Position numbers and translations under genes: made by a program. From Candidatus Thorarchaeota archaeon (GTDB lineage: Archaea; Asgardarchaeota; Thorarchaeia; Thorarchaeales; Thorarchaeaceae), in NCBI GenBank assembly GCA_019057475.1, contig DXJO01000006.1:160001-224000 (forward strand): a DNA stretch of 64,000 nt, given 5' to 3'. Of the stretch, positions 26,965 to 43,400 are shown one piece after another. Every line of letters starts with the position of its first letter. Position 1 is the stretch's first letter. The notes beneath the pieces were generated by a model. That model saw only the letters and a list, made by a program, of their open reading frames with translations. It made no database searches and had not been told where the DNA came from.

Positions 26965-28017
26965 ATGCAATTAGGTGGCTTTGTGTTGATAACGACTCGA
27001 AAACTCAATAGAGTACGTAATTCGCTCTATGTTTATCTGCCGAAACAGTGGTGTTCCGACTACAACCTGACAAGCGATTCGGAGGTTCGCATTCAAGAGG
27101 GCGCGGACGGTACGCTTATGATATCGCCCACTTCCACGAAACCCAAGGAGAGGGATTATCTTCGATTTCAGATAGATGATGTGATCAAGGACCAAATCGA
27201 GAACTTGTTGGTCGGAGCGTATATAGTGGGGGTGCAAGGACTCAATATCGGCACGTCCAAGCCTCTGGATATGAAGACCCGCGAAAGAATAAGTAGTTGG
27301 ATCAGGAAGCTGCCAGGTTTCGAGATTCTGGACGAGCATGAGAAGAGCGTTACAATTAATGACACAAGCGAGAAGCAGTTCGTACTACCTGTGTTGAGAC
27401 GACAATTCTCCACAACAAAATACATGCTCGGGGGTCTCCTGCGGGCTCTGGAAACTGGCGAAACAGAGGAGACCTCTAGAATCGTAAGCCGGGATGATGA
27501 TGTTGACCGTCATCGATACTTCGTTGAGCGGCTCTGCCACATTGCCCTGCACGACCCTGCCTACGCGCGCCGGATTTCAATAACAACCTCTGATTGTCTT
27601 CACTTTAGTCTTGCGGCGAAGTACATCGAAAGAATAGCTGACCATGTGTGTGGTGCTATTGCCGAAATAGCTAACGTTGAGGAAGTCGATCCGTTTCTTG
27701 CTAAGTCAGGCAAAGCCCTCGCGAAAGCTTATGATGAAGCAACTCATACATTCTTCAGTTCCGAGGCAAATCGGGGGGATAAACGTCGAACAGCCCTCAC
27801 AAAAGCATCTAGAGAAGCATTCGAAGCGTTGATCAGTGCCAAACGGATGTCAGTAAGGCTCTCTAAGCGAGAAACCTCAAAGAGAAGCTACGGACCACAT
27901 GAGGCTCTAATTCTATTCCACATGGAGAGAATAGCATCCTATTGCAGCGACATTGGAGAGGTTGCAATCAATCGAATCATCGAGAAACGAATCCATGGGC
28001 CGTCGATAGTGGAGTGA
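26965..28017 (+). CDS. phoU: Archaeal PhoU-family regulator with N-terminal AbrB domain
   Basis: RKL....SLYVYLPKQW AbrB motif; DDDVDR, ERIADH and ERIASY PhoU motifs. Confidence 0.88.
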   Translation: MQLGGFVLITTRKLNRVRNSLYVYLPKQWCSDYNLTSDSEVRIQEGADGTLMISPTSTKPKERDYLRFQIDDVIKDQIENLLVGAYIVGVQGLNIGTSKPLDMKTRERISSWIRKLPGFEILDEHEKSVTINDTSEKQFVLPVLRRQFSTTKYMLGGLLRALETGETEETSRIVSRDDDVDRHRYFVERLCHIALHDPAYARRISITTSDCLHFSLAAKYIERIADHVCGAIAEIANVEEVDPFLAKSGKALAKAYDEATHTFFSSEANRGDKRRTALTKASREAFEALISAKRMSVRLSKRETSKRSYGPHEALILFHMERIASYCSDIGEVAINRIIEKRIHGPSIVE

Positions 28018-28022
28018 TTGTA

Positions 28023-28868
28023 ATGGTTACCGACAGCTCAAAATCAAAGCACCTCAACGAACTAAATGGCAAGGACTGGGTCAAATCTACCAAGTCTTGG
28101 TTTGTTGTAAATCCTAGGCCGCGCAGGAAGGCACAGAAGAACCATCCTGCGAAATTTCCTGAAGAGCTTGTCAGTCGCTTTGTGCAGTTTTTTACCCAAC
28201 CTGACGCATGGGTGATTGACCCTTTCGCCGGCGTAGGAAGTACATCCGTGGCTTGTGGTCAGCTCGAAAGGAACTCCGTAGGAATTGAGCTAATGCCTGA
28301 ATTCGTTGAGATAGGTCTCGAGGCTCTCAAAGCGACATCCATTGGCACTGAACACCATTTAATTGTGGGAGATTCTACTAAGATAGATAGTGTACTTGCT
28401 GAGCACTTCGGCGACGATTTACCGGTATTTGATTTCCTGATAACGTCACCCCCGTATTGGAATATGCTGCGCAAGTCGCGTGGAGGGAATGAAACAGTTC
28501 ACAAAGAGAGAGAGGCCAAAGGACTCAAGCAGTACTACAGCGATTCGAATCTGGATATTGGTAACATAAACTCGTACGAGAGCTACATCGAATCTGTTGG
28601 CCGAGTATTGGATGGTGTCCGTCCGTTCCTTTCTGACGGAGCGTATCTCGCGGTTGTTGCTCAAAACATGCGTGACGTTGATGGGATTATGCGACCCATT
28701 GCGTGGGACCTTGCACGCAGACTGTCTCACACCTACGAACTGAAACAGGAACAGATCTGGTGTCAGGATAACAAGCGCCTAGGTTGTTGGGGATTTCCCA
28801 CTACCTATGTTTCGAACGTACACCACCATTACTGCCTTGTGCTCCAAAAAGCAAAAGCGAAAACCTAA
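28023..28868 (+). CDS. Orphan DNA methyltransferase (SPPY, likely m4C)
   Basis: HPAKFP, DPFAGVGST and TSPPYW motifs. Confidence 0.88.
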   Translation: MVTDSSKSKHLNELNGKDWVKSTKSWFVVNPRPRRKAQKNHPAKFPEELVSRFVQFFTQPDAWVIDPFAGVGSTSVACGQLERNSVGIELMPEFVEIGLEALKATSIGTEHHLIVGDSTKIDSVLAEHFGDDLPVFDFLITSPPYWNMLRKSRGGNETVHKEREAKGLKQYYSDSNLDIGNINSYESYIESVGRVLDGVRPFLSDGAYLAVVAQNMRDVDGIMRPIAWDLARRLSHTYELKQEQIWCQDNKRLGCWGFPTTYVSNVHHHYCLVLQKAKAKT

Positions 28869-28935
28869 GAGGAAATCTCTCAAAGCGGAGTCAGCCATCT
28901 CACATTTGTAATGGCGTAGGGAGAGGAGAATCACA

Positions 28936-31629
28936 ATGTTCAAACACGGTCGCCACCTCATCTGTTCGCTTCTAATTCTGTCTATTGTTGTGTCTGCAAG
29001 TCCATTATGGAACGAGGCACATGTTGCTTCAAATCATATTCAAACATCGTTCACGCCTGCAGATTTCGCTTGGGAAACGTTCTCTAGGGACATGAACGTC
29101 ACAACATTTGTTTCACCGGATGGCAGTCGCGATGAGATTTGGCACCTATTGCAGAGTGCTCAGGACAGCATCTACGTTGAGATTTATGGTATTAACAATC
29201 CCTACATTCTTGACCTCATCCACGAGCTGCATGATTCAAAACCAATGCTGGAGATGAAATTCCTCCTAGGGTGGAACAGCTTGGGATATTACAGTCCAAA
29301 TGATTACGTGGCAAATAACCTTACAGAGCTCGGCTATCCCGTCAGATGGACCAATGATACAGAGTTCACCTATGCTCATCAGAAATTCTTCATCATCGAC
29401 AACATAACTACTGTGGTACATTCTGGCAACTGGGCAAAGACTAGCTTTCCAGAGGATGGTAAGAAAGCCAATCGTGAGTGGAGCATTGCTATGACTGACT
29501 TGGTCATTACAGAGTACTACCGTTCAGTATTTGATTATGATTGGGGGAACGGGATAGACTATGATCCAGTGATTCACGGCACAGGCGAGCCTCTTGTGTA
29601 CACTGAAGCCTCCAGCACCTATCATCGACCATTCAATGAATCTGGGCACTTTAGCGGCACAATGAATGTAACACCCATAGTCAGTCCGGAAACCAGTCTG
29701 CAGGGAATTCTTTACTGCATAGACAGCGCAAAGGTCACATTAGACATCCAAATCCCCTACTTCACAAGCTATGGTGATGCAGGAGCAGTCGATGATGTCG
29801 TGGATGCCATCATCGCAGCAAAAGAACGAGGCGTGACTGTACGAGTGATTACTGAAGAGGGGCAAAAGGATAATGATGCAGTTGCTGCTGACCTAATGGC
29901 CTACGACATTCCTGTTATCTGGCAAGATGAGCGATGGTTTACTGCACAGCACAACAAGGGCATCATCGTTGATGGCCGCATGGTACTCATCAGCAGAATA
30001 AACTACAGCGACGGCAGCATTACTGCCAACCGTGAAGCAGGAGTAATTATCCTACACGAGGGCATTGCTCAATGGTACCAAGAGATTTACGACTTCGACT
30101 GGGGTTTGGGTGATTGTGATGTCATGGAGGAAGTCAATCTCTATTGGGAGCCAAACATACCCAAAGATGACGCAATAATCAATGTAACAGTATACACACA
30201 GAAGCTGTATTCAGATGTTACCGAGGTCAAACTCGGTGTTAGAATCGCTGAGGGGGGCTGGATCAACCACACTATCACAGCCAATGTCTTTCCGTCAGCA
30301 GAAGGTCAATATGAGAACTACTACCATGAAATTGCCGCTCAGCCAAACTTCACGAATATATCTGTGCAAGCCTTCGTTGAAGCTCTTGGGGTTTGGCACA
30401 CTGGTGTAGAAATGCAGATACGCGTCCTCAACGAAATCGATTACACCTTCACGATTGATAGTCCTGAGGACATGGAATACGAAGCAGGTAGCATTGGACA
30501 TTCAATAACGTGGTCACCGATTTCGTACAAAGCCCATAGTTACGAAGTTTACAGAAATGGCACAGAGGTAGCCTCCGGCAATTGGAATGGCTCGCCAATC
30601 ACTGTTTCAATTGATGGATTATTTGCGAATCTGTATAACTTCACACTCAATGTGACTGATACTGAGGGACTATCCCGATACGATACGGTGTATGTGCGTA
30701 CACATCCATCGATTGACCCAACAATAACTGCGCCTGCAGATATGGGGTACGAGTACGGTTCTTCAGGACATTTCTTGGAGTGGGAGTCATACGATTTATA
30801 CCCGAACTCGTATCAGGTATACCGCAACGGGACGCTTCACCTCTCTGGTAACTGGAGCGGAGCGAGTATTGTGGTTCAGGTTGATGGTCTAGACCTTGCG
30901 ATGTTCAACTACACTCTCATCGTTTTCGATGATTCAAGCAATTCAGCAAAAAGCACAGTCTGGGTTACTGTTGTTGATACAACCAGTCCCACAATCAATC
31001 ATCCCTCAGACTCTGAGGTCGAGGTTGGTACTTCAGGGAATCTGATTACATGGTCACCTGGAGACCTTCTTCCTTCTTCATATGAGATACTGCGAAACGG
31101 AGCCGTCCTGTATTCAGGAATTTGGACAGGATCAAGCATTGTGATAAACGTAGACGGATTGGCCCTTGGATTATTCAACTATACAGTGCAAGTTTCTGAT
31201 ACCAGTGGAAACACTGCTACGGATACTGTCTTCGTAACTGTGATTGACACCACTAGTCCAAGCATCAATGGTCCCGCAGCCACTGACTATCTCTACGACA
31301 GTACGGGTAACTCCATTGTCTGGGTCGGGTCAGACATCCTCCCGATGTCATATCAAATCCTCAGAAACGGAGCTGTTATTGATAGTGGAATCTGGGATGG
31401 GTCTGACATCACTATTTCGATTGACGGTCTAGAACCGGGAGAGTACAATTTCACAATTGCTGTTATAGACACGAGTGGGAACACAGCAACACACACCACA
31501 ATTGTAACTGTAACCCAACCGCTTGATGTCGTTGGAATGCTACTTGAGAATTGGGCGATTCTCGTAACAGCGGTTTCAGTGCTCGCCTTTGTGATTCTTG
31601 GGTCTCGCGTATGTCGATCTAAACGATGA
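28936..31629 (+). CDS. Surface-anchored phospholipase D-superfamily enzyme with Ig-like repeats
   Basis: Signal peptide; HQKFFIID and HNKGIIVD HKD motifs; four ~90-aa Ig-like repeats; C-terminal TM. Confidence 0.88.
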   Translation: MFKHGRHLICSLLILSIVVSASPLWNEAHVASNHIQTSFTPADFAWETFSRDMNVTTFVSPDGSRDEIWHLLQSAQDSIYVEIYGINNPYILDLIHELHDSKPMLEMKFLLGWNSLGYYSPNDYVANNLTELGYPVRWTNDTEFTYAHQKFFIIDNITTVVHSGNWAKTSFPEDGKKANREWSIAMTDLVITEYYRSVFDYDWGNGIDYDPVIHGTGEPLVYTEASSTYHRPFNESGHFSGTMNVTPIVSPETSLQGILYCIDSAKVTLDIQIPYFTSYGDAGAVDDVVDAIIAAKERGVTVRVITEEGQKDNDAVAADLMAYDIPVIWQDERWFTAQHNKGIIVDGRMVLISRINYSDGSITANREAGVIILHEGIAQWYQEIYDFDWGLGDCDVMEEVNLYWEPNIPKDDAIINVTVYTQKLYSDVTEVKLGVRIAEGGWINHTITANVFPSAEGQYENYYHEIAAQPNFTNISVQAFVEALGVWHTGVEMQIRVLNEIDYTFTIDSPEDMEYEAGSIGHSITWSPISYKAHSYEVYRNGTEVASGNWNGSPITVSIDGLFANLYNFTLNVTDTEGLSRYDTVYVRTHPSIDPTITAPADMGYEYGSSGHFLEWESYDLYPNSYQVYRNGTLHLSGNWSGASIVVQVDGLDLAMFNYTLIVFDDSSNSAKSTVWVTVVDTTSPTINHPSDSEVEVGTSGNLITWSPGDLLPSSYEILRNGAVLYSGIWTGSSIVINVDGLALGLFNYTVQVSDTSGNTATDTVFVTVIDTTSPSINGPAATDYLYDSTGNSIVWVGSDILPMSYQILRNGAVIDSGIWDGSDITISIDGLEPGEYNFTIAVIDTSGNTATHTTIVTVTQPLDVVGMLLENWAILVTAVSVLAFVILGSRVCRSKR

Positions 31630-31687
31630 GCATTGCACTCATGTCCACTTCAGACCATTCATATACTAAGAATCGAAGCCAAACGTT

Positions 31688-32569
31688 ATGCCTGAACAGT
31701 TTCGAAACCTCCAACTTTCGGATGAGAGATCAGTTAGAGAGCTCTGTAAGGACATCTGGGAAGGTAACGACTATGTACCTGATCGCTTCTCCAGCTGGAT
31801 TAGGGAGGATAATTCTAATCCGATTGGTCTCTTTATTGATGGGGAACTTGTTGCCTTAGGGAATCTTGCAGCCGCTCCTGACTCTCCTGTTGCTTGGATT
31901 AAGGGACTTAGGGTGAACACGAGCCGCCAACACGAAGGTCATGGGACAAAACTGGTTGAACATATGATCAACCTGGCGAAGAAAAGGGGCATCAAGAAGC
32001 TCAGATACGCCACAGGCTCAAGAAACGAGCATTCAGTTCATCTGGCCAAGAACTTAGGTTTCTCGGTAGCCAACAGTATTGGCTACTTTCGATTATCCAA
32101 CCCCTATCCTCAGCACCCAACGCCCAGCCCTGTAACAGTCCCGCTTGCGGTCGATTCCGAACGTCTTCACGAAGTGCTGTCTTCTACTCCCGAGCTTGTG
32201 GAGTCAGGAACATTGCCGCTTCTCTGGGAGTTCGAAGACAAGGAACTTGAAGGTCTCGCAAGGCTTGGAAATAGGACTGAGTTCAAGTTGATTGTGGGCG
32301 ACGAGGGAAATGCAAAAGGGCTATTCTACGGAGCATCGGTCGAGAGGAATGGATCAAAGACTGTGACATACTCCGTATTCGCGACAGACAGGGGTGTCTT
32401 CATAGACATCATGGCTCGGATACTTGAAGAGCTTGACAACTCGGGTGCGGATCGGGCGGCCTTCTTCCTTGGACCTCGTGCCACAGAGTGGGCACCGAGC
32501 CTGCTAATCGTTCCGGATGACTATTTGGACCGACGCTACCTACTTCTGGAGCGCGGCCTTGAAGGTTAG
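31688..32569 (+). CDS. GNAT N-acetyltransferase
   Basis: DYVP...W, WIKGLRV...QHEGHGTKL and N..S..LA..LGF motifs. Confidence 0.88.
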   Translation: MPEQFRNLQLSDERSVRELCKDIWEGNDYVPDRFSSWIREDNSNPIGLFIDGELVALGNLAAAPDSPVAWIKGLRVNTSRQHEGHGTKLVEHMINLAKKRGIKKLRYATGSRNEHSVHLAKNLGFSVANSIGYFRLSNPYPQHPTPSPVTVPLAVDSERLHEVLSSTPELVESGTLPLLWEFEDKELEGLARLGNRTEFKLIVGDEGNAKGLFYGASVERNGSKTVTYSVFATDRGVFIDIMARILEELDNSGADRAAFFLGPRATEWAPSLLIVPDDYLDRRYLLLERGLEG

Positions 32570-32926
32570 CTAATCGGCAGATAACGCGCCAGCTATGAAT
32601 GTGTCTATCATCCTGCATGCGGGGCATCCGTGGTTCCTATACTCTAAGCCTGCCAAGGCACCCACCATGATTTTCTCCAATGCCAATGTCAAGCGTGACT
32701 TCCTTTGGAGGTTCAGCTTAAACCCGGACTTCTCGGAAGATGCTTCGAGTGCTGCCACCTGCTGTTTGAACTGTTCTATTGTCATGAGGAAGTTGAAGTG
32801 ACACACGCTGATTGGCGCTACATGCTCATTGAGATATACTACTGCATATCCATTGATCCCGTCATCCTGCTCTCTGAATTTGATGTCCATCTGACGGATA
32901 TCATTGGCCTCCATAAATACACTCAT
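32570..32926 (-). CDS. Hypothetical protein with C-terminal CPAC
   Basis: 118-aa ORF filling the gap; GCPAC motif. Confidence 0.6.
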   Translation of the reverse strand: MSVFMEANDIRQMDIKFREQDDGINGYAVVYLNEHVAPISVCHFNFLMTIEQFKQQVAALEASSEKSGFKLNLQRKSRLTLALEKIMVGALAGLEYRNHGCPACRMIDTFIAGALSAD

Positions 32927-33065
32927 TTTGGGTTCTCACCAAGGGATCTACTTAACACACCTCAGTTCGCCGCTTTTTAGAACTTGCATTGCTGCAAATC
33001 AGTATGGTTTTGTGCCTACGGCGAGCGTCAAGACATTGAAGACCCAGGGAATTGGTCCCTATTCG

Positions 33066-33257
33066 TCACGGTCCGGAAAATGACTGAGAGAGGAGCCAGA
33101 TCAGCAACGCGATAAGCGCTAGCAGAAACGCGCCTGTCAAGACCCAGCGCCAATCATCTCCCTCACCGAAGTCTGGCCAGCAAAACTGCTGGAAAGCCGT
33201 CCCCCTTCCGAAGAGTCTGCACGTCTTGGGAACCGGGGCTTTTGCAAATGCAAGCAT
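33066..33257 (-). CDS. Putative tail-anchored microprotein
   Basis: 63 aa; single TM WVLTGAFLLALIALLIWLL followed by a 7-aa tail; AGGA before the ATG. Confidence 0.5.
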   Translation of the reverse strand: MLAFAKAPVPKTCRLFGRGTAFQQFCWPDFGEGDDWRWVLTGAFLLALIALLIWLLSQSFSGP

Positions 33258-33321
33258 AGTCCTTCGCCTCGCGATCGTCTACTGCTCCGTTGGATATACG
33301 AGCCATGCTAAATTCTCTTAC

Positions 33322-34332
33322 CTAGTCTGGCTTGAACTTCTGCATGTCCTCACAGACTTTTGCGATTCCATCAACGCCTAACACTTCCGTGGAATACAGA
33401 GGGATGTACGCGCTGACCAAGTCTCCGAGTTGATTGTGAATCATGTCCATGTATCGATCTTGCTGTTTGAAGCTATTCTTCATATACTCGGTAGCATCCG
33501 CTTCTGCAACTGCTCGTGGAATAATGCGATTCACGAAGACACCGCCCACGGGGATATCGAATGCTCGTACCATCTTGATGAAGCGTTCTACTACTGCGAT
33601 GGGAAGTGCCAACGGGATCGTGACAAAGATGAACGCAGTCTTCTCAGCGTCGTTGAGGATTGCTTTTGCTTTCTGCATCTTCTCATGTTGACGCAGCAAG
33701 TCTGCCATCATCGGGTCTTTCTCAACTTCCTCCTTAATTTTGTCCTTTCGGAAGGACAGTTTCACACGGAGCGATAATGCTTCCTTCCTGCTCTCAATCA
33801 TGCGGCCCAGCCAAAGGTCATAGATCTTGCTCAGACCGAGCAAGCGAATTGCATTGGCTACTGCCGCACAATCGAAGATGATGATGTCGTAGTTCTCCTC
33901 CTTTTCAAGCATTATATCAGTCATGGTGTCGAACTGGGCAGACTCCTCGAAGGCGGGATTCGTGGCGGCAATCTCAATGAATGAAGCAGGATCGACTGGA
34001 ATATCCGCCCACTTGAGAAATGACGTGATGCGCTCTGTCAGCTGTTCCCTGTATACCTCAATCTTTTTTTTGATATCTACCTCTACAGCCCACAGATTCT
34101 CAAGCCCTTCGATTTTCTGAACTCCGCGTCCCCAGATATCTTGGCCATAGAGGCTGGTAAGGGAGTGAACCGGGTTCAGCGAGGCAACAAGAGTCTTCTT
34201 GCCCTGCGTGGCGAAATAATGCCCAATGGCAGCAGCACTGATTGTCTTGCCAACTCCGCCTTTACCTCCGGTAAAGAAGAACTTGATTGATGGATGCTTT
34301 TCTACGAACTCTTTGAATGTAGGTGCTGTCAT
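33322..34332 (-). CDS. Get3/ArsA-family ATPase B (degenerate switch motifs)
   Basis: GGKGGVGKT; switch I SLNPVHSL; switch II DCAAVANA. Confidence 0.9.
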   Translation of the reverse strand: MTAPTFKEFVEKHPSIKFFFTGGKGGVGKTISAAAIGHYFATQGKKTLVASLNPVHSLTSLYGQDIWGRGVQKIEGLENLWAVEVDIKKKIEVYREQLTERITSFLKWADIPVDPASFIEIAATNPAFEESAQFDTMTDIMLEKEENYDIIIFDCAAVANAIRLLGLSKIYDLWLGRMIESRKEALSLRVKLSFRKDKIKEEVEKDPMMADLLRQHEKMQKAKAILNDAEKTAFIFVTIPLALPIAVVERFIKMVRAFDIPVGGVFVNRIIPRAVAEADATEYMKNSFKQQDRYMDMIHNQLGDLVSAYIPLYSTEVLGVDGIAKVCEDMQKFKPD

Positions 34333-34336
34333 CTTT

Positions 34337-35344
34337 CTAATCCTCCGTTATTTTGCCATCCCAATTCATCATAATGTCACCCACTTCGGCAATCATTTTC
34401 AGTCCCTTGGGTTCCCGATCAAACATTGGGATTACTGCACAAACATAGTTGCCCAATTCCTTCTCGATTTGAACCAAGTATTTTTGCTGCATCTCTATGC
34501 GTTCACGTAGAAAGTCGCCCAGGTCATCACGCTTGAGAAGTTCCCGAGGATAGACCTGGTTGACAACAACCCCAGTAAGGGTGATGTCCATCTGCGCAAA
34601 CATATCCAGCGCACGCCTGGTGTCCAAGATTGCCATCTTCTCTGGGACAATGACCATGTAGAACGCTGTTCTCTTGCTATCAGTAAGGAGGTCCTGGAAA
34701 AAGCCAAGTTTCTTACGGATTTCCTGCAGCTCGTTAAGCATCTCATCTTGACCGGAAGCTGCTCCCTTCTGTTGAATTCGGTATGCAGAATCACCGTATT
34801 CTTGGGCCATTCTTCGCGTTTCTTCCATCTTGTCAATCCACATATCTAGTATCCGCGCCATTGATACCATTCTGATTCCGTGACCAAATGGAGGCATATC
34901 AAACACGTAAAAGTCGAATTCCTGAGACGCTAGAAGACCTGCCATGGCGTCGTAGGTGGCTGACTCGTGCATCGCCGGTTCAGCTGCGGCTGCAGTTATG
35001 TACTCATCAATCTCTCTTGGAATCTCATCGATTCCGTACATGTCCTTGATCTTCTGGCGAATCTCTTCCTGAAAGATGGCTATTCGCTTATCAGCGTCTA
35101 TCTCCATTACATACAGGCTCTCTTGTAGCTCCTGTCTACCCTTCCCAAAGATGTCTTTCTCGAAGATATCGGATAGCGACGCCTGCGGATCGGTACTGAA
35201 GCAGAGAGCCCGCCGACCCTTCTTTGCCAGCCAAGATGAGAGGGCAGCGCTGCATGTTGTCTTGCCCAATCCACCCTTGCCGGCGAACACTGCGATTTTC
35301 GTATCGTGATTAGATGAATAATAGTCACTCATTTTCGAAGTCAT
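34337..35344 (-). CDS. Get3/ArsA-family ATPase A
   Basis: GKGGLGKTT, STDPQASL, DMPPFGHG, VVVNQ and EPKG motifs. Confidence 0.92.
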   Translation of the reverse strand: MTSKMSDYYSSNHDTKIAVFAGKGGLGKTTCSAALSSWLAKKGRRALCFSTDPQASLSDIFEKDIFGKGRQELQESLYVMEIDADKRIAIFQEEIRQKIKDMYGIDEIPREIDEYITAAAAEPAMHESATYDAMAGLLASQEFDFYVFDMPPFGHGIRMVSMARILDMWIDKMEETRRMAQEYGDSAYRIQQKGAASGQDEMLNELQEIRKKLGFFQDLLTDSKRTAFYMVIVPEKMAILDTRRALDMFAQMDITLTGVVVNQVYPRELLKRDDLGDFLRERIEMQQKYLVQIEKELGNYVCAVIPMFDREPKGLKMIAEVGDIMMNWDGKITED

Positions 35345-35392
35345 AATGCCTCACCTCTAAGTATGAATGCTGGAACTAGTGGACCAGCTACC

Positions 35393-35683
35393 TTAGAACA
35401 ATGCGTCAGTGAAATCACGTTCCTTGAATAGAGACCGTTTCCAGGTCTTGATATTCGGAACTGCATACGGTAACAGTTTCAACGAGTAGTACGGAGGAAG
35501 GATGGGAATACCCAACATGTCTCCCAAGGTGATGAGCATAAATAAGTGTTCGAGATACATACGAGTCTTCAAGGCGTACCGCGTCATACCTTGCATTGCC
35601 ATACCATAGAAGAAGTCCTTCACAGCTTCCTTTGCACCGCCCCTTTTCTTATCAGGGGCATCCTTGTCTTTTTTTTTCCCCAT
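35393..35683 (-). CDS. Small CstA-associated hydrophobic protein (cory-CC-star-like), paralogue 2
   Basis: 'EHLFMLITLGDMLGIPILPPYYSLKLLPY...WKR...KERD'. Confidence 0.8.
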   Translation of the reverse strand: MGKKKDKDAPDKKRGGAKEAVKDFFYGMAMQGMTRYALKTRMYLEHLFMLITLGDMLGIPILPPYYSLKLLPYAVPNIKTWKRSLFKERDFTDALF

Positions 35684-35888
35684 AGGAACCACCAATTGGT
35701 CGAAAGCTGGGAAACCTATATCTGTTGTGATACTTTTGGCGCTGTGGAAATATCAACCTTGATGCATGAAACCAATAAATCTCTTCATGTTCTTGCGCTA
35801 TCATGAGCATGTAGGACGCCATTAGATGCTGGTATTCATGCTTTGAACTGGTTCATATTGGGGCGTTTTTCTGTAAGGTCTATGTTGC

Positions 35889-36164
35889 CTATTCAAACAT
35901 TCTGTCAAGCATGTCCCGCTCCTTTAATACTCGTCTTCGCCAAGAAAAAAATTGCGGAAGCAGGTGCACCAAGACTATTCGAGAGTAATATGTCGACAAA
36001 GTGGGGTACCCCAGCAGGGTGCCCAGGGTTATAAAGATTAGAGCATTGTCGTAGTGCGATTTCGTCTTTCTGAGAGGCTCTGCAAGACTCAGCTTCTGAG
36101 CCTGCCAAATGCCGGCTAAGATTGCTCTTATCGACTTAGTTATCCGCAAACGAGTGTCATCCAT
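35889..36164 (-). CDS. Small CstA-associated hydrophobic protein, paralogue 1
   Basis: 'DNALIFITLGTLLGYPTLSTYYSRIVLVHLLP...WRRRVLKERD' aligns with 35393-35683. Confidence 0.75.
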   Translation of the reverse strand: MDDTRLRITKSIRAILAGIWQAQKLSLAEPLRKTKSHYDNALIFITLGTLLGYPTLSTYYSRIVLVHLLPQFFSWRRRVLKERDMLDRMFE

Positions 36165-36234
36165 GTAACCTATAGAGCATCCGCCCAATAAACGCATGGG
36201 TCATGCGAATGAAGCTTCAAGCTTGAAGGCTGTA

Positions 36235-36299
36235 AAGGGAAAGAAAAAAGGGAATGCAGATCCGGCACCCATGATTGACACGGACACCGGATTGCACTC
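36235..36299 (-). terminator. Long stem-loop plus U tract after cstA
   Basis: Minus strand GAGTGCAATCCGG...CCGGATCTGCATTC, then CCTTTTTTCTTT. Confidence 0.6.
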
Positions 36300-36343
36300 G
36301 TTGAGAGGGACTTGAACGTCTAGGCTTTTCTGTTGAAATGCTC

Positions 36344-38125
36344 CTATGCTTCAGTCTCTCCTATTGGGCCACGTTTCAACGCCGCCCAAGCGTCCACGAA
36401 CACCAATACTCCGAGTATGATCAGGATGACTGTAATTCCAATAAATGTAACAGTCAACGCCTGAGCTGGCAAGATGTTCCCTGCTGCCGCCGCGTCTCCA
36501 ATCCAGCTCCCAGCCCTAGCGTAGTAGTACGGCGCAGTGGTGAGCGCTCTTACGAAGACCCAACACTCCCATACGAGTGCAGCCAAACAGGTTACAATCA
36601 TGAAGAGTGCAGGAATCAACGTGTAGTGCGTTGGCTTCTTGGCGCGTGCTAAGTAAACAGAACCAAGCATTAGGCAAAGACCTGCGAGCAGTTGGTTGCT
36701 TCCACCGAATAGCAGCCAAATGTGATACCAAGCACCAGTGGCCGCGAAGATGAATGCAATGAGACAACCAATGAAGGCGCCTATCCATTTATTCCTGAAC
36801 AGCGGTGCGATTGGTGAAGTACCAGCAAGGTCAGCGGCTGCCATCCTAAAGAATCGCGGCATCAATTGCAGTACGGTGATGGCATACAGCTCCAGTACCA
36901 TTGCAAAAAAGGCAATAAGAATCACGCTTGACACTGCTGACCCACCAAATAGACCTTGGGTAAGGATTGTGGCACCCACTGGGAAGTTGACGAACCATGC
37001 CGGGCTCAAGAGAGCGGGATCTATCACGACGTAGGCGGACAGGGCTGACATCGCGAGTAGCCCCTCAACGAACATCGAACCGCCAGCTACAGGCAGAGCA
37101 TCCACTTCAGACATTAGTTGCTTTCCGGTTGCGCTGCTGCCAACTAAGCTATGCCAGCCAGAAACAGCACCGCATGCAATAGCCACAAAGAGTATTGGCC
37201 ATATCGGACCGTTTGCCTCGGTAAAGAGCGTGATGATTGGCGCTGTATGAACTACGACCGGATCTGCAGGGTAGAGCATCACTGTGAATGGACTTAGCAG
37301 CGCACCCACAATGATCATGATCACAGCCACGAAGCAGGGCCAGAAAGCCACGTAGTTTACCGGTTGTGCCCATTCAGTGATGGGCAATGTAGCTCCGAAG
37401 TACACAAGGATCAAGGCAACTACAATCCAAAGCTCTACTGGTGTAGTAGCAATCCAGCCAAGAGCGGCTATACCTGCAGGTGCGGGTAGATAGAGCCACA
37501 ATCCCAGCCAAATACCTACAACCATGAAGGCCAGCCCAACTAATGTCGAGATGACGATGCTTAGCTTCATTCGGTAGAGCAGGATTCCGCTAACGAAACC
37601 GCCTATGATAACCATAATTGTTGGGACAATGCTCTGCGGAAACGCCCTGAAGAAGGCACCACAGATGTACGCAAAGACTGCCATAACCAAAATCAAGTAG
37701 AAGATGATAAAACCCATCAAACCCTTACGGGCTCGAGCGCCGACCATTCGGTAACAGATGGGACCGAACGATTCTCCTTCGCTTCGAACTGTAATCATAA
37801 CAGCTGTGTAGTCATGAATCCAACCTATGAAGAATGTGCCGAATATTATCCACAAGACTGCTGGAAGCCAACCGAAGACTAATGCTATGAACGGTCCGCT
37901 GATGGGACCGAGCGCAGCAATAGATTTGAATTGGAACCCAAAAAGAACGCTCTTGGATGTTGGGAAGAACTCCACTCCATCCATATACATATGAGCGGGT
38001 GTTTTCACTTTTTCATCGGGCCCCCACACGGTCCTATCTACAAACCTAGCGTACATCCAGTACCCTACTATGTAAATGACCAAGGCGACGCCGACAAAGA
38101 TAGCCGGAGAAGTCACATATACCAC
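36344..38125 (-). CDS. cstA: Carbon starvation CstA-family transporter (peptide/pyruvate)
   Basis: TPAH...DGVEF, LFGFQFKSIAALGPI, IACGAVSGWHSL and IWLLFGGSNQLLA motifs. Confidence 0.92.
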   Translation of the reverse strand: MVYVTSPAIFVGVALVIYIVGYWMYARFVDRTVWGPDEKVKTPAHMYMDGVEFFPTSKSVLFGFQFKSIAALGPISGPFIALVFGWLPAVLWIIFGTFFIGWIHDYTAVMITVRSEGESFGPICYRMVGARARKGLMGFIIFYLILVMAVFAYICGAFFRAFPQSIVPTIMVIIGGFVSGILLYRMKLSIVISTLVGLAFMVVGIWLGLWLYLPAPAGIAALGWIATTPVELWIVVALILVYFGATLPITEWAQPVNYVAFWPCFVAVIMIIVGALLSPFTVMLYPADPVVVHTAPIITLFTEANGPIWPILFVAIACGAVSGWHSLVGSSATGKQLMSEVDALPVAGGSMFVEGLLAMSALSAYVVIDPALLSPAWFVNFPVGATILTQGLFGGSAVSSVILIAFFAMVLELYAITVLQLMPRFFRMAAADLAGTSPIAPLFRNKWIGAFIGCLIAFIFAATGAWYHIWLLFGGSNQLLAGLCLMLGSVYLARAKKPTHYTLIPALFMIVTCLAALVWECWVFVRALTTAPYYYARAGSWIGDAAAAGNILPAQALTVTFIGITVILIILGVLVFVDAWAALKRGPIGETEA

Positions 38126-38310
38126 TTCCTCTCTGAGAATGTCCCGTTATGAAACATCCCGAATTATGTGAGCGTTTTATAATACGAAACTTGACCTTAA
38201 GTCTAGCGGTAACTGGATTTCCATAGCTATTAGTGAGCAAATAACCACATTTAGCACAAGAATATGCTTTGGAGCAATAGGAAAATCAGCTGGAGAAGCT
38301 CTTTGCTGGC

Positions 38311-38910
38311 TCAAGACTCGTGTCCGTGGCACAGAACTGAATTCAATGAAGCAACTAATTTGTTAGCATTCTCAAGAATCATTTTAGAAGATTGTGACTT
38401 CCAAGTGAACGTTAGAAGCCTCCCGGTTTCTTCACAGGGAATGTATCCTTCAAGATTAGCAATAGGTATAGGTCGTCCTATAATCCCGAAACGGCGTCGA
38501 TAACCGGTCCAAAGCGCATAGCTTCCAGCATGATTGCCTGCATGTAGTTCACCATGCTCAACGACCTCCCGATCCTTCTTTGTATGACGTGTTAAGAGGT
38601 CCTCGGGTGTAGGTGCAATTGGTCCTAGCTTCTGCAAGTCCACAACTACCCTCAATGTGAAGTCGAGGTTGGGTCTGCTCGCCCCATTTCGCTGACTAGA
38701 GATGAGACACTCAGTTTCCCCAGTTCCCACCCAAATCTTATTCTTATAGAGAAACCGATTAGTGACTAGGGGTTCGTCTAGCTGATAGCCGGTCATCCAC
38801 GACTCAGGTACGCGAATGTAGTTGAATAATGCACGGCCAAAGAATATGTTCCATGCTTCGATTGCGATCTCGCGCGTCCCATTGTCCTGCTTATTGGCAT
38901 CGTTTGGCAT
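38311..38910 (-). CDS. Hypothetical soluble protein upstream of cstA
   Basis: About 200-aa beta-rich ORF ending CEETGR...SVLCH. Confidence 0.7.
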   Translation of the reverse strand: MPNDANKQDNGTREIAIEAWNIFFGRALFNYIRVPESWMTGYQLDEPLVTNRFLYKNKIWVGTGETECLISSQRNGASRPNLDFTLRVVVDLQKLGPIAPTPEDLLTRHTKKDREVVEHGELHAGNHAGSYALWTGYRRRFGIIGRPIPIANLEGYIPCEETGRLLTFTWKSQSSKMILENANKLVASLNSVLCHGHES

Positions 38911-39055
38911 GAATGCGCCCTCAATTGGTGATGAGCCCCTTGTTATATTCGTTGTGCAGTTCTCGGCTGCCAATTTCGTCGGATATCCTTAAAGGGAGGA
39001 TGTGGGGTCACGAGAACAACACTACGCAACTAGTTATCGCCTGAGGTTAGAGCTG

Positions 39056-39733
39056 ATGCAAGACATTGAAACCGTTGGTCTCTACATCGTGATGGGACTT
39101 GGGGTTGTATTGATTTGGATTTGGATGGCAGGCCGGATGTCCACCAAGAAACTCCGCAACAAGATTGCCCAAGACATTGCTACGCGCTTTCAATCGATAA
39201 CCTCCAAGGTCAGTGTGAAGCTCCTCGGGAATACGGGAGTCAAGTTCGCACTTCACCAAAAGGCGAAGAGCTCATTCTCTAAGCTGGAAGCAACAGTCCT
39301 GCTCCTTGATCGTTCCAACGCATTCCATATGCTCTATTGCAAGGTCCGCCATCGAACTGATCAGATTCAAATCCGAGGGAGTCTTAAGGAAAAGCCTGCT
39401 ATCCGGGTTGAGATGGCATCTGCCAACGAGAAGCAGAACTTGGATGATACACTTAAGGATCAAGCCAACAACCTCAAGGAGTTCAAGGTAGAGTACCTAG
39501 CTGAGTGGCTCTATATTCTCACAAATGATACTGGGGATGGAGCTGATTTCTTCGACCAATCAGATGTAAGTGCAGCTTTCAAGGAAGCAGCACAATACTT
39601 GACCCGTATATCTATTGCTCCACGTGAACCTCACCTCTTTATCTCAGCGGTGCTTGTCCCACAATCTGTGGAGCCAATCGAGCGGCTTACTCTCTCCATC
39701 GCAAAAGGAGTCCGCAAGAAGAATAGAAAATAG
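39056..39733 (+). CDS. Membrane-anchored CCDC47/DUF1682-like protein
   Basis: N-terminal TM; '[31 protein letters not shown]' and 'LYILTND...LTRISIA' resemble recalled CCDC47 core segments. Confidence 0.6.
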   Translation: [225 protein letters not shown]

Positions 39734-39932
39734 GGGCAGAAGTTGTCCTTTGAGGACGATATCCCGGACAGCGATTCGCAGTCTGGTCTAATTCGTTGCA
39801 GAGGTTAAGGATGTGCTTCAACCCCTGAGTCTTGACTTGCTTCTTCTTCGGCTTATTCCCTTCTGGAGTGAGGGGACCGTTGTTTCTACCTGAGGTCGAG
39901 CTAGAGAAACCGATTCTTCTTTGTGAGATCAT
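39687..39932 (-). CDS. Possible small basic protein
   Basis: GGAGG before the ATG at 39932; overlaps the 3' end of the convergent gene. Confidence 0.3.
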   Translation of the reverse strand: MISQRRIGFSSSTSGRNNGPLTPEGNKPKKKQVKTQGLKHILNLCNELDQTANRCPGYRPQRTTSAPIFYSSCGLLLRWRE

Positions 39933-39965
39933 TGTCCTCCCCAAGCTCGACATTCAGGATATTCG

Positions 39966-40355
39966 CTATGTGTAGTGTTGTTTAGTTGCCGGTTGATGTA
40001 GATAGAAGATGATGAAGAGGCTTATGAGAGCGCCCCACCATTCATCGCCAACCAACCAGAGCGGTATTCCGATTATGTTCAGGATGAAAGCATATTGCCA
40101 GAACTTGCTCTCAATGTTATACAAACCCAATGCAACCCACAGGCTAATCAATCCAAGAAGCAGTCCAATGCCTGCTGCTACGAGATTGATTGTGCCCCAG
40201 ACTTCACCCTGGTACCATAGTATGGTATCTGCGTAGGCGAGGTTTATGCCTCCGACTATGATTCCCGCTAGTCCATTTACAGCCACCAAGATACTTACCC
40301 AGGTTACTTCACTAGGCTTGCCTGACGGCGTTCCAGTAGTTCCTTCTTCTGCCAT
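39966..40355 (-). CDS. Hypothetical 4-TM membrane protein
   Basis: Four hydrophobic segments; C-terminal 'IIFYLHQP.TK..Y'. Confidence 0.75.
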   Translation of the reverse strand: MAEEGTTGTPSGKPSEVTWVSILVAVNGLAGIIVGGINLAYADTILWYQGEVWGTINLVAAGIGLLLGLISLWVALGLYNIESKFWQYAFILNIIGIPLWLVGDEWWGALISLFIIFYLHQPATKQHYT

Positions 40356-40492
40356 CGGTGTCTCTCCAAATTGGTCAGATTGGCTTTGCTGGGCGTCTAA
40401 AATCCTTTACTATTCCGTGAGGAGAGGTTCCTCTAGGGTTAGGGGAATGCTCGCTAAGCGAACAAGCCCCCGGTCTTTCCCCTGAGTTCGCA

Positions 40493-43400
40493 TCAATATG
40501 CTCTTCGCCTTCTGAGCACAACTGCTACTATGATAACCACCACGACGACGCCCATAATGATGATTATGACAATGGTCATGTCAATGGGTGGGATAGGTGT
40601 GGTGGGTTCACTGACTGTGACGAGCTCTGTATCACTTGAAGAGAGTCCGTGCTCATCCGTCACAATCAAGGTATAGCTGTACGTGCCGGAATCTAGTCCA
40701 TCAACTGAGATGGAAATTACTTCTGAACTAGAGTTCCACGGACCCGATCTAACAACGGTGCCATCTATCGAGATCTCATAGCTTGCTGGAAGCGCGTCTG
40801 TTGGATGCCAAGTGATAGAGTTGCCAGTTTCGCCTAGCGTGTAGTTGATGTCTTCAGGATGGTCGATTTCTGGCGGCAGAGTGTCCTGAACACTTACAGA
40901 GAACGTGCCGCTCAATGTGTTCCCCAGAGTGTCGTTCACCCAAATATGCAGACCGTATGTTCCCTCTTCAAGGCTTACTATGCTGGTCACAAGACCATCT
41001 GCACTGACAGCGAAGCGAACCGTATCATTCAGCCACCATGTGCTGATGCCCGAAGGATCGATTGCCGTCAATCCGTAGCTGAGGGCATGACCAAGCTCTA
41101 CGTTCTGATCGGTGGGATCTTCAGCCCAGACTGGCGCAGTCGTGTCATAGGCAGGAAGGAGGTTGGTTTCGGTGATGTAGCCCTCCATGGGATTTAGTGG
41201 GTCATCCGACCTGATGTATACGAGCATTCCTGTTGGTCGAAGAGCATACGCCGTCATCATGTGTTCCTCGTTGCTGAGAGTCCACACAGCATAACCTTCG
41301 TATATTGTGGATCCATCTACGAACAGGAGATCGTTCCACGCGAAGAACGGTGCGGCATCGCCCATGTCAGCGAACGAACCGATTACTTCTAGACTTTGTA
41401 GACCTGAGAAACAGAAGAAGTGCATGTGATCCCAGCCCATATCAGCAAATGGAATGTACCCATTGAGCACATTGACAATCATCCCGAATTCGCCAAGCAT
41501 GATTGTCCCGCTTTCATTGTACAGGTGTATCGTCATCGAAACATTCACTTCAAACTCAGAGAGCCAATCGCCAAAGGTGAAGTTCATGTCCTCCGTGTAC
41601 AAGTCTGTTTCAATACGCCAGTTGACATAGTCACCTGGATTCGGAAGGGCGATTGGAACCACATCAATGGAATCGACTGTGACCGTGGCATTGAGAGTTG
41701 TCAGGTCCCACCAGAATGCCATCAACAAGATTGTGTTTGTACCATTCTGAAAGACTGGGACAATGAGATCCGAATTGCCCGTCGCGTTCCAGAGTGACGT
41801 TATGAATTCACCATTCACAAACACGTGAATTTCTTGTAGGTTCTCCGAATCTGAGGCGTCGAACTCAACGTACACCTGACCTCCGAAAACAGTCGCCCCA
41901 ATGGTTGGCGTAACGATAAAGAAGTACGTTCCGCCCACGCTCGGAAGAGCCGTGGCGACGTTGTTGCCGGTGAAGGGTTCACCAAGAACTGGTTCAGCAT
42001 ACGCAGTGATGTTGTAAGTCCTCATCTCAGTCGGTATCCAAGGATAGCTTAGCACATAGGACTCGTAGGAGTTCAACTGTGGGATGGTCACTGATGAAAC
42101 CAGGGCGTCATCGATGTAGAGGCTGAACGCAACGCCAACCTCGTCTGACGTTCCCAAGTTGGTTACTGTGGCGTCGATAATGAACAGAGTGTCCACGGGA
42201 AGTTCCGAGGGCACATTGAGAGAAACTGCGAGGTCATGCTCGTAGGCATGATATGTGAATCTAAGAGCGAAATCGGTGACTCCTTCAAGATCGTCATCGA
42301 GATAGTTATTGTAGTGAATCCCGTCCCCGTGATTGAGTCCAACAGTTGCGGAGAATACATTCACAATCTCAAGGTAGTTGAACTGGATTAGGCCATCCGC
42401 ATACAGTACAACCTCGAACGTTCCAAGAAGTGACCCTCCTAGGTGATCATAGTTGTCAAACTGTATTACCGCCCAGTCTGCGGTCACCCACGCATAGACA
42501 TTGTTGTCCGCCCACAAATCATCCCAGAACGGAGCCAAAGCATATGCGAAGTCTGGGTCGGCCGATGGAAATTGCGGGTTGCTATACTCCCGCGGATCGG
42601 GGTTGCTGAAGGAGAGCCAACCGTTACTGCTGATATAGACTGTATCAAAGGTCCCATCGTAGAATCTAAAGTTAAACGGTAGTGCAACACTGGTATACAC
42701 ATCATCACCATTGAGATACAGATTCTCGCCGTTGGCCTTCGCATCCAACCATGTCGCAGATCCTTCCTCCATTGTGTAGTCATGTAGCTCACAGATTGAA
42801 ACCAGCCGTGTGGCAGCATTGTTCCCGGTATTCTCATCATCTGGCTTAGGCGCGACGTAGGCAGTCACATTGTATGTGCCTTCAAGAGTCGGTGTCCATA
42901 AGTAGGAGAGTGTCTGGCTAGTGCCATTGGCGAGCTCAGAGATGAACAATGAGTCGACCTCAATGTCGTCAATGAAGAGCTGGAGCAGAACATTCGTTTC
43001 AATATTCAAGCCAGTGTTGAAGGCCGTAGCATTCAGCAAGACTGAGTCACCTGGGCTGAGGCGCTCTGGTGCTTGAAGACCAGCAGCCAAATCATGGTCA
43101 TAGATGATGGGAATGTGCAGTAGGATATTCTCAAGGATGCGACTGCTACCGTTTTCAAAACCATATTCTAGGGTCTGTGTGGAAATAACTATAGCTCCGG
43201 CACCAAAGCGAAATTCAATAAGCGCTGGATAGTCGGGTTCAGCCACAAGAATGATGTCTGCTCCTGCAGGAATGCTGTCAAGATAACCGTATACTGACCA
43301 CCACCAGTTATCCAACTCCGCATCAGTGATCAGATTAGGGTTCAACAGTATAGGATGTACGGGGTTGACAATACTCACCACATCACCGTAGAACGCAACA

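Follow-up and report, generated by a model that had tools for sequence, protein, structure and literature searches.

Two Unlike ArsA/Get3-Family ATPases in a CstA Transporter Module of a Thorarchaeote: A Probable Heterodimer with One Catalytic-Type Site

The Locus and Its ATPase Pair

The stretch of DNA considered here comprises 64,000 nucleotides from a Candidatus Thorarchaeota archaeon (GenBank assembly GCA_019057475.1, contig DXJO01000006.1, positions 160,001 to 224,000 of the forward strand); it is referred to as the window, and coordinates are counted from its first letter. Between positions 33322 and 35344, the minus strand carries two adjacent genes for ATPases of the ArsA/Get3 family, termed A and B, which are the subject of this work. 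They belong to a cluster in which the order is CstY-like protein, 220-amino-acid (aa) protein, CstA, CstX2, CstX1, A and B. The five genes from CstA to B all lie on the minus strand, and this order recurs across the 80 genome loci that were collected as relatives of the pair. All gene-context counts given below are fractions of these 80 loci, which span Asgard lineages, Thermoproteota, Nitrososphaerota, Thermoplasmatota, Bacillota, Chloroflexota, Thermodesulfobacteriota and Acidobacteriota.

Subunit A (34337..35344, minus strand, 335 aa) is of the catalytic type, with the motifs GKGGLGKTT, STDPQAS and DMPPFGH and an Asn in the A-loop. Subunit B (33322..34332, minus strand, 336 aa) is of an Asn type; it reads GGKGGVGKTI, SLNPVHS and DCAAVAN, and its Walker-B Asp and A-loop Asn are present. 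Both are members of the ArsA/Get3 superfamily, as their full-length profile scores lie over the curated cut-offs. Against PF02374 (ArsA_ATPase, cut-off 24.3), A reaches 223 bits and B 197 bits, and against TIGR00345 (GET3_arsA_TRC40, cut-off 135) the values are 218 and 214 bits, respectively. The closest match by sequence in the PDB is, for each of them, the Get3 of M. jannaschii (3ug6), at about 1e-52 over the full length, while A and B share 29% identity with each other (E 5e-49). The initial annotation had described an asymmetric pair of adjacent Get3/ArsA-like genes at this position, with STDP and DMPPFGH in A and with SLNP, GKTI and DCAAVAN in B. The genes are real, being tandem minus-strand open reading frames (ORFs) that both exceed the family cut-offs, and every one of these motifs is present.

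The two genes are packed closely. The ATG of B lies 4 nt past the TAG of A, and A and B are read in different frames. A GGAGGA is situated inside the last codons of A, just upstream of the B start.

Asymmetry of the Two Active Sites and Its Conservation

The conservation of the motifs was followed in an orthologue set of 70 A and 81 B sequences from at least 15 phyla. The deviant Walker A, GKGGxGK[ST], is found with both of its lysines in A, in B and in every orthologue covering the region; the trans-acting P-loop Lys is present in 80 of 80 B sequences, the remaining one being cut there. Similarly, the Walker-B Asp and the A-loop Asn are each found in 70/70 A and 81/81 B. It is at the two switch regions that the subunits part. 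The switch-I Asp position is occupied by Asp in 70/70 A and by Asn in 80/81 B, and the switch-I His position by Ala in 70/70 A and by His in 81/81 B. Switch I is reciprocal in this respect: A has kept the Asp and lost the His, B has lost the Asp and kept the His, and a single-gene form described below has kept both. In switch II, the Pro, Gly and His are each retained in 70/70 A; in B the pattern is D-[TC]-A-A-V-A-N, with A-V-A-N instead of these residues in 78-81 of the 81 sequences.

The description of A as the canonical copy holds for its switch-I Asp, but not for its switch-I His, which is Ala throughout, nor for its switch II, which reads DMPPFGH and not DTAPTGH. Judged by the catalytic Asp and a switch II of the DTAPTGH type, the pair appears split, with A carrying these features in a modified form and B lacking them.

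The B type was also traced by a protein search with B as the query against 5.8 billion proteins. Relatives at 55-96% identity were recovered from Thor-, Hermod-, Baldr-, Njord- and Bathyarchaeia and from Anaerolineae, and among the best 120 database relatives of B, 119 carry S-L-N-P-[VI]-H-S together with GKT[IV]. The B ORFs are intact, and in the various phyla of archaea and bacteria they still share 55-82% identity. Averaged over all pairs, identity amounts to 61.8% for B and 61.4% for A, B being the more conserved of the two in 55% of the locus pairs. The initial annotation had allowed for simple decay of B in case the Asn was not conserved among the orthologues. Since the substituted residues are invariant and B is conserved as strongly as A, decay can be ruled out. 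Furthermore, the invariance of the nucleotide-contacting residues suggests that the B pocket is still in use, as an idle pocket would drift.

An intermediate form of the pair may be represented by three loci from Bathyarchaeia/Nitrososphaeria (L075, L081 and L083). Here, B has the Asn and yet retains DTAPVAH, while its partner A reads DMMPHGH. Switch II would thus have been altered in both partners together, although this is a single event and weak evidence.

Partnership of the Two Subunits

A is located directly upstream of B in every locus whose contig reaches far enough, and among the loci with enough upstream flank none has B without A. From the stop codon of A to the P-loop of B, 61-92 nt are counted in 74 of 78 loci. 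With the 22-residue N-terminus of B, this spacing implies that B starts within a few bases of the A stop, and such near-zero spacing suggests that the two are produced 1:1. The pairwise identities of A and those of B correlate with r 0.915, a part of which is given by shared descent alone.

Two trees were built, namely a quick tree of 161 rows and a careful one of 65 rows. A and B are each monophyletic in both, with a Shimodaira-Hasegawa-like approximate likelihood ratio test (SH-aLRT) support of 99 and 100 in the 161-row tree and of 100/100 each in the 65-row tree. In the latter, A and B are sisters (97/96), and the canonical Get3 proteins come next (92/82).

A single dimer with the two sites opposite each other would more readily account for the reciprocal losses in switch I and for the way switch II has changed on both sides within one subclade. 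Judging from co-occurrence, adjacency, equal divergence and conserved motifs, the two subunits seem to be obligate partners that have one catalytic-type site between them, as had been proposed at the outset. The pattern supports a heterodimer, in which A would provide the one catalytic site and B a site that probably binds ATP without hydrolysis.

The CstA Module Around the Pair

The cluster is present in nearly every one of the 80 loci. Clustering of the ORFs gave family counts of 80 for the ATPases, 68 for CstX, 61 for CstA, 55 for a family of 170-220 aa and 50 for a membrane protein of about 215 aa; the CstA figure counts those loci in which the gene falls inside the flanks that were collected.

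CstX1 is a small helical protein (35393..35695, minus strand), encoded directly upstream of A in 68 loci. Its core is nearly invariant (YGMA...TRMYLEHLFML.TLGDMLG.P..PPYYSL..LPY...W...ERD.TD), and an alignment of 38 sequences from both domains of life has 24 invariant positions. All 38 members match NF041419 (cory-CC-star), in every case below the cut-off. The AlphaFold2 (AF2) model is all-helical, at a predicted local distance difference test (pLDDT) value of 66, which is of moderate confidence. The hydropathy over 19 residues peaks at about 1.44, borderline for a membrane span, in a segment some 34 residues from the C-terminus. CstX2 (35889..36197, minus strand) is a paralogue with 40% identity to CstX1 over 58 residues, and a second CstX paralogue of this kind occurs in 56 of the 68 loci having CstX1.

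The permease itself (36344..38125, minus strand, 593 aa) belongs to the CstA family (PF02554, E 1.5e-95). Beside it, at higher coordinates, is encoded a conserved module protein (38311..38973, minus strand), which has 220 aa here and about 170 aa elsewhere and whose family is found in 55/80 loci. A Pfam scan gave no match for it; ESM Atlas clusters resembling DUF1795 were hit with a score of 0.95, which is to be read as a lead only.

At the far end of the cluster lies a CstY-like single-pass membrane protein of 225 aa (39056..39733, plus strand), with its family in 50/80 loci. The start at 39056 is the Met that aligns with the orthologue starts, the ORF as called beginning at 39002. The N-terminal hydrophobic helix has a Kyte-Doolittle value of 2.26, and in six modules with a single ATPase the gene stands directly downstream of the ATPase. 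The AF2 model (pLDDT 92.3) finds its best Foldseek matches in the PDB among the chains 7tm3_4, 9i78_4 and 6w6l_7 of ribosome-translocon complexes (E 3.5e-10 to 3e-7, TMq 0.59-0.77), the top one having E 3.5e-10 and TMq 0.76. We take these chains to be CCDC47. The next match after them is the mycobacterial TtfA (6t84), which is, by the title of its PDB entry, an accessory factor of a bacterial transporter.

Downstream of B, a 118-aa protein with a C-P-A-C motif is encoded (32570..32926, minus strand), whose membership in the module is uncertain. It occurs at this place only in loci of the Thor/Hermod type (11 loci), with two weak matches in further Asgard loci, one Thor-type (L044) and one Heimdall-type (L057); a Pfam scan of the protein found no match.

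A few other ORFs of the window may be mentioned. On the plus strand, 27942-28868 encodes 308 aa with an S-P-P-Y motif typical of N6-adenine/N4-cytosine DNA methyltransferases, and 28936-31629 a predicted surface protein of 897 aa with two H-x-K-x4-D (phospholipase D-like) motifs, both as read from the translations. In the latter, these motifs precede four repeats, each of some 90 aa, and the chain, which has many N-x-S/T sequons, ends in a membrane anchor. On the minus strand, 40493-48451 is an ORF of 2652 aa that starts with a signal-like segment, contains many repeated domains and densely spaced N-glycosylation sequons, and ends in a membrane anchor; it is probably a giant Asgard surface protein.

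Distribution and the Single-ATPase Form

The pair is patchily distributed. True B orthologues were found in 13 of the 151 sampled genomes of the phylum and in 4 of the 27 of the window's own family, the genome of the window included, whereas a match of the canonical Get3 type is present in most of the same 151 genomes. The sole other genome of the genus, which is 88% complete, does not have a module B orthologue. The bacterial copies share 55-62% identity with those of the window. They are as similar to them as the copies of other archaeal phyla are, which suggests that the whole module moves between the domains.

Another form of the module is seen in the class containing a Pyrodictiaceae locus, in which eight genomes have only a weak, single CstX match. 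Six of these eight loci were collected, all from one class and hence not independent of each other. Their order is CstA | CstX - one ATPase - CstY, with exactly one CstX in each. The single ATPase reads GKGGVGKTT and SLDPAHNL, and its switch II follows D-x-x-P-T-[GA] in 5/6. Two unlike ATPases accompanied by two unlike CstX proteins, and one ATPase accompanied by one CstX, is the scaling that a pseudo-symmetric complex would give. As direct ancestors of A and B, the single-ATPase proteins were considered and found unsupported: they branch outside A, B and Get3 in the 65-row tree, with the caveats that apply to long branches. Such modules are best regarded as a parallel form and not as a demonstrated ancestor.

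The Question of Tail-Anchor Targeting

The initial annotation had placed the pair in a Get3 framework, with a Met-rich A as expected for a groove that binds transmembrane (TM) segments. Its count of 22 Met in the 335 aa of A is correct (6.6%; B has 12 in 336), but the framework is not supported, as the pair sits in a CstA cluster, a separate canonical Get3 is encoded elsewhere, and the Met residues lie mostly outside the helical subdomain. Over the clades, the mean Met content is 5.3% for A and 3.6% for B. In the client-binding helical subdomain, on the other hand, about 5.4 Met are found per A orthologue and about 7.3 per B, the extra Met of A being mainly around switch II, in the core and towards the C-terminus. 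A Met-rich client groove in A is therefore not supported by the Met positions. In hydrophobicity, the helical subdomains of the pair do not exceed that of canonical Get3, and they are somewhat more charged. Their strong conservation across the domains of life suggests one fixed partner and not a client groove.

The separate gene is a third member of the ArsA family in the same genome (contig C42, 49131-50039). It reads STDPAHS and DTAPTGH, has a C-K-F-C zinc-clasp motif and carries a Met/Gly-rich insert in the helical subdomain; by these features, it is likely the true tail-anchor targeting factor. A CxxC was found in 9/9 of the canonical Asgard Get3 proteins checked, i.e., this one and eight others. 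Thus, the earlier statement that neither copy of the pair has the eukaryotic CxxC clasp is right for the pair and not for the clasp, which is not confined to eukaryotes. Among the orthologues, a CxxC anywhere in the sequence was seen in 1/70 A and 0/81 B.

Comparison with Known Systems

Clusters of cstA, cstX, in some cases cstY, and an arsA homologue were described by Castillo and Saier in 2010 (Int J Microbiol 2010:187373; PMC2963123). They comprise a CstA permease, a CstX of about 90 aa, a single-span CstY of about 210 aa and a single-domain ArsA of about 330 aa. The window has the same constitution, with an ArsA homologue of about 330 aa beside cstA and a small cstX, plus the CstY-like single-pass protein. 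From size, topology and position, and not from sequence, we infer that the protein at 39056-39733 is the CstY of that work. In the same paper, adjacent ArsA pairs were reported in two organisms (Par, 31% identity; Sth, 25%), and the Asp after the P-loop was said to be one that 'can be substituted only by N'. It was proposed there that the ATPase energises CstA with CstX as a linker, and homodimers were suggested for the CstA-linked ATPases (PMC2963123). Absent from the paper are the split into an Asp type and an Asn type, the degeneration of switch II, the reciprocal pattern at the switch-I His and the ratios of 2:2 and 1:1 between CstX and ATPase, as are Asgard examples and the 220-aa family. 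In the library searched, a look for experimental studies of the CstA-linked ATPases or their cluster found only this genome-based paper and no experimental test. Such modules were, in short, known beforehand through comparative genomics, and that of the window is a further member, from an Asgard archaeon.

The fold and the deviant Walker A are shared with the ArsA of E. coli and its plasmids. ArsA consists of two homologous nucleotide-binding units, and its functionally unequal halves form a pseudo-dimer that drives the secondary-type permease ArsB. Both halves have the canonical Asp, that of the N half lying in STDPASN. In ArsA, the units are fused in a single chain of 583 aa, whereas A and B are single domains of 335 and 336 aa. 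By analogy, A and B may be viewed as the same arrangement divided over two chains, with the inequality of the units taken further than in the fused ArsA on ArsB. An arsenic pump was considered as the identity of the pair and rejected, with ArsA equivalog scores below threshold (95-98 bits for TIGR04291, cut-off 650; 118-124 bits for NF041417, cut-off 800) and no ars neighbours. No ars gene, be it arsB, acr3, arsD, arsR or another, is present in 32570-39733, nor among those ORFs of 28000-41000 that were read or Pfam-scanned. It has also been reported that the metalloid site of Cys113/172/422 is absent from all single-domain ArsA homologues (PMC2963123).

Canonical Get3 (3ug6; yeast 2woj) resembles A and B in length and in the helical subdomain; it provides their best PDB matches and is the sister group of the two. 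It is, however, a homodimer with CxxC and with Asp in both sites, whereas A and B are heterotypic, lack the CxxC and bear the equivalent of D57N in B. Unlike canonical Get3, the pair also has a fixed linkage to a transporter cluster.

Another two adjacent and unlike Get3-like ATPases are the mycobacterial BagA and BagB (Rv3679/Rv3680; PDB 6bs3). They are the subject of Hu et al. 2019 and Whitaker et al. 2020, as cited in PMC10597346, and are reported to work together, both by the title of Whitaker et al. and by PMC10597346. Orthology with BagAB was rejected; the scores of 38-54 bits for NF053622 and NF053621 fall far short of the cut-offs (400 and 521), and B matches 6bs3 only remotely (E 1.6e-5). 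The cory-CC-star family that CstX weakly matches is named for Corynebacterium, which is actinobacterial, like the mycobacterial host of BagAB.

In heterodimeric ABC exporters, one consensus site turns over ATP and one degenerate site holds it. Their ATPase fold differs from that of A and B and there is no homology, so that the likeness is an analogy of logic only.

Proposed Mechanism and Alternative Explanations

In canonical Get3, the switch-I Asp, D57, aligns and activates the attacking water, and the first P-loop lysine acts across the dimer (PMC10248533). The D57N variant binds ATP without hydrolysis, and the closed dimer is trapped (PMC12506534). In the mechanism proposed here, A and B would be the unlike subunits of a heterodimeric ArsA-like P-loop ATPase, which would serve as the energy or regulatory part of the CstA module. 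Turnover would take place at the A site, which has a complete catalytic set, i.e., the deviant Walker A, the switch-I Asp and a D-x-x-P-x-G-H switch II. The B site would hold ATP in the manner of yeast Get3 D57N and act as a structural or regulatory nucleotide site. It is most likely occupied by ATP and non-hydrolysing, because the residues that bind Mg-ATP are kept while the Asp has become Asn and P-x-G-H is lost. Each ATPase subunit would receive one of the two CstX paralogues, through which the dimer would be connected to CstA, and the turnover of ATP at A would drive or gate the transport or the assembly of CstA. We infer heterodimer formation, the loss of hydrolysis in B and the coupling to CstA from motifs and gene order, and we hold the whole, in which turnover in A and ATP-holding in B act through CstX on the transport or assembly of CstA, to be probable, though well short of certain.

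Several points speak against this mechanism. The loss of hydrolysis on the change from Asp to Asn comes from yeast Get3 and is carried over to this subfamily by analogy. One B orthologue, that of the Geothermarchaeales locus L030 (5977-6990), has the Asp (SLDPVHS) and a P-loop with GKS, and is the sole one to do so. (The partner A of this locus is intact, without an ATG, GTG or TTG start near the expected position.) Any two genes that travel together, by descent or by transfer, would lie side by side and diverge at the same pace, so that neither observation proves contact. In the quick tree, which is the larger, the node that joins A and B has a support of only 23, and the careful tree has long branches that come together close to its root. 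E. coli CstA and BtsT are reported to be secondary transporters without an ATPase, so that an energising role is not required by the transporter family. Lastly, the fold of the CstY-like protein is that of a eukaryotic factor for membrane-protein biogenesis, for which reason a role in assembly fits as well as one in transport. The present data do not separate a motor from an assembly factor.

The main rival is a dedicated machine for membrane-protein biogenesis, and not a pump motor, in which a Get3-like A/B dimer would hold the moderately hydrophobic helices of CstX, or segments of CstA, in its helical subdomain and release them at the membrane; there, the CCDC47-like CstY would assist in the assembly of the CstA complex. 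The closest solved relatives of the pair are indeed archaeal Get3 proteins, and the sister position of canonical Get3, the borderline-hydrophobic segment near the C-terminus of CstX1 and the match of the CstY-like model to translocon chains that we take as CCDC47 are all in keeping with such a role. Against it are the helical subdomains, which are charged and strongly conserved and no more hydrophobic than those of Get3, as for one fixed partner. The CxxC clasp is missing from A and B while a canonical Get3 is available elsewhere in the genome, the fixed ratio of CstX to ATPase, whether 2:2 or 1:1, fits stable subunits better than clients, and the CstY fold is shared by TtfA, which serves a bacterial transporter. 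We regard this as a possible explanation, though not a likely one. A bolder form of it is doubtful: an ATP-driven assembly or quality-control machine akin to the eukaryotic GET and multipass-translocon (CCDC47/PAT) systems taken together, in which a Get3-like heterodimer, one subunit of which would be kept ATP-locked for good, would hold the helices of CstX and, with the CCDC47-like CstY, build or gate the CstA complex. If it were true, a prokaryotic forerunner, with the GET and multipass-translocon pathways acting together, would be present in Asgard archaea and bacteria.

The remaining alternatives concern the subunits themselves. A and B could form separate homodimers, with A2 as an active ATPase and B2 as a non-hydrolysing, ATP-dependent switch or sensor on the same module. 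Single-domain Get3/ArsA proteins are normally homodimeric, homodimers are what was suggested for the CstA-linked ATPases in 2010 (PMC2963123), and the case for contact between A and B is built from sequence and gene order. This is nonetheless unlikely in view of the reciprocal switch-I pattern, the concerted alteration of switch II within a subclade, the near-zero spacing with its suggestion of 1:1 production, and the finding that no adequately flanked locus has B alone. Very unlikely is a stand-alone archaeal Get3 heterodimer for the general targeting of tail-anchored proteins, with TM segments bound in a Met-rich groove of A. The Get3-family fold and the Met content of A, higher than that of B both in the window and in the clade, would agree with it; the pair is, however, locked in the CstA cluster in nearly all 80 loci and present in few genomes of a phylum where most have a canonical Get3-like match. 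The own canonical Get3 of the organism has both the CxxC and the Met-rich insert, and the conserved Met of A lie mostly outside the helical subdomain. That B is a decaying duplicate without function, as its loss of canonical catalytic residues might at first suggest, is scarcely credible for an intact ORF that is conserved like A and whose very substitutions are invariant across phyla.

Significance

CstA-family permeases are widespread transporters of nutrients (pyruvate/peptide) and act as secondary carriers in E. coli. A large and very strongly conserved subset of them, in archaea as well as bacteria, has its own Get3/ArsA-type ATPase, CstX and a protein of the CCDC47 fold. If the heterodimer with turnover in A and held ATP in B is real, it would be a natural dimer with a built-in 'D57N' and could serve as a model for SIMIBI-class dimers in which one site turns over and the other is locked with ATP. 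With it, one could also test whether the principle of ArsA, i.e., an ATPase placed on a secondary carrier, applies outside arsenic transport. Its occurrence in an Asgard archaeon, together with the CCDC47-like partner, points to a possible link with the origin of the membrane-protein biogenesis factors of eukaryotes.

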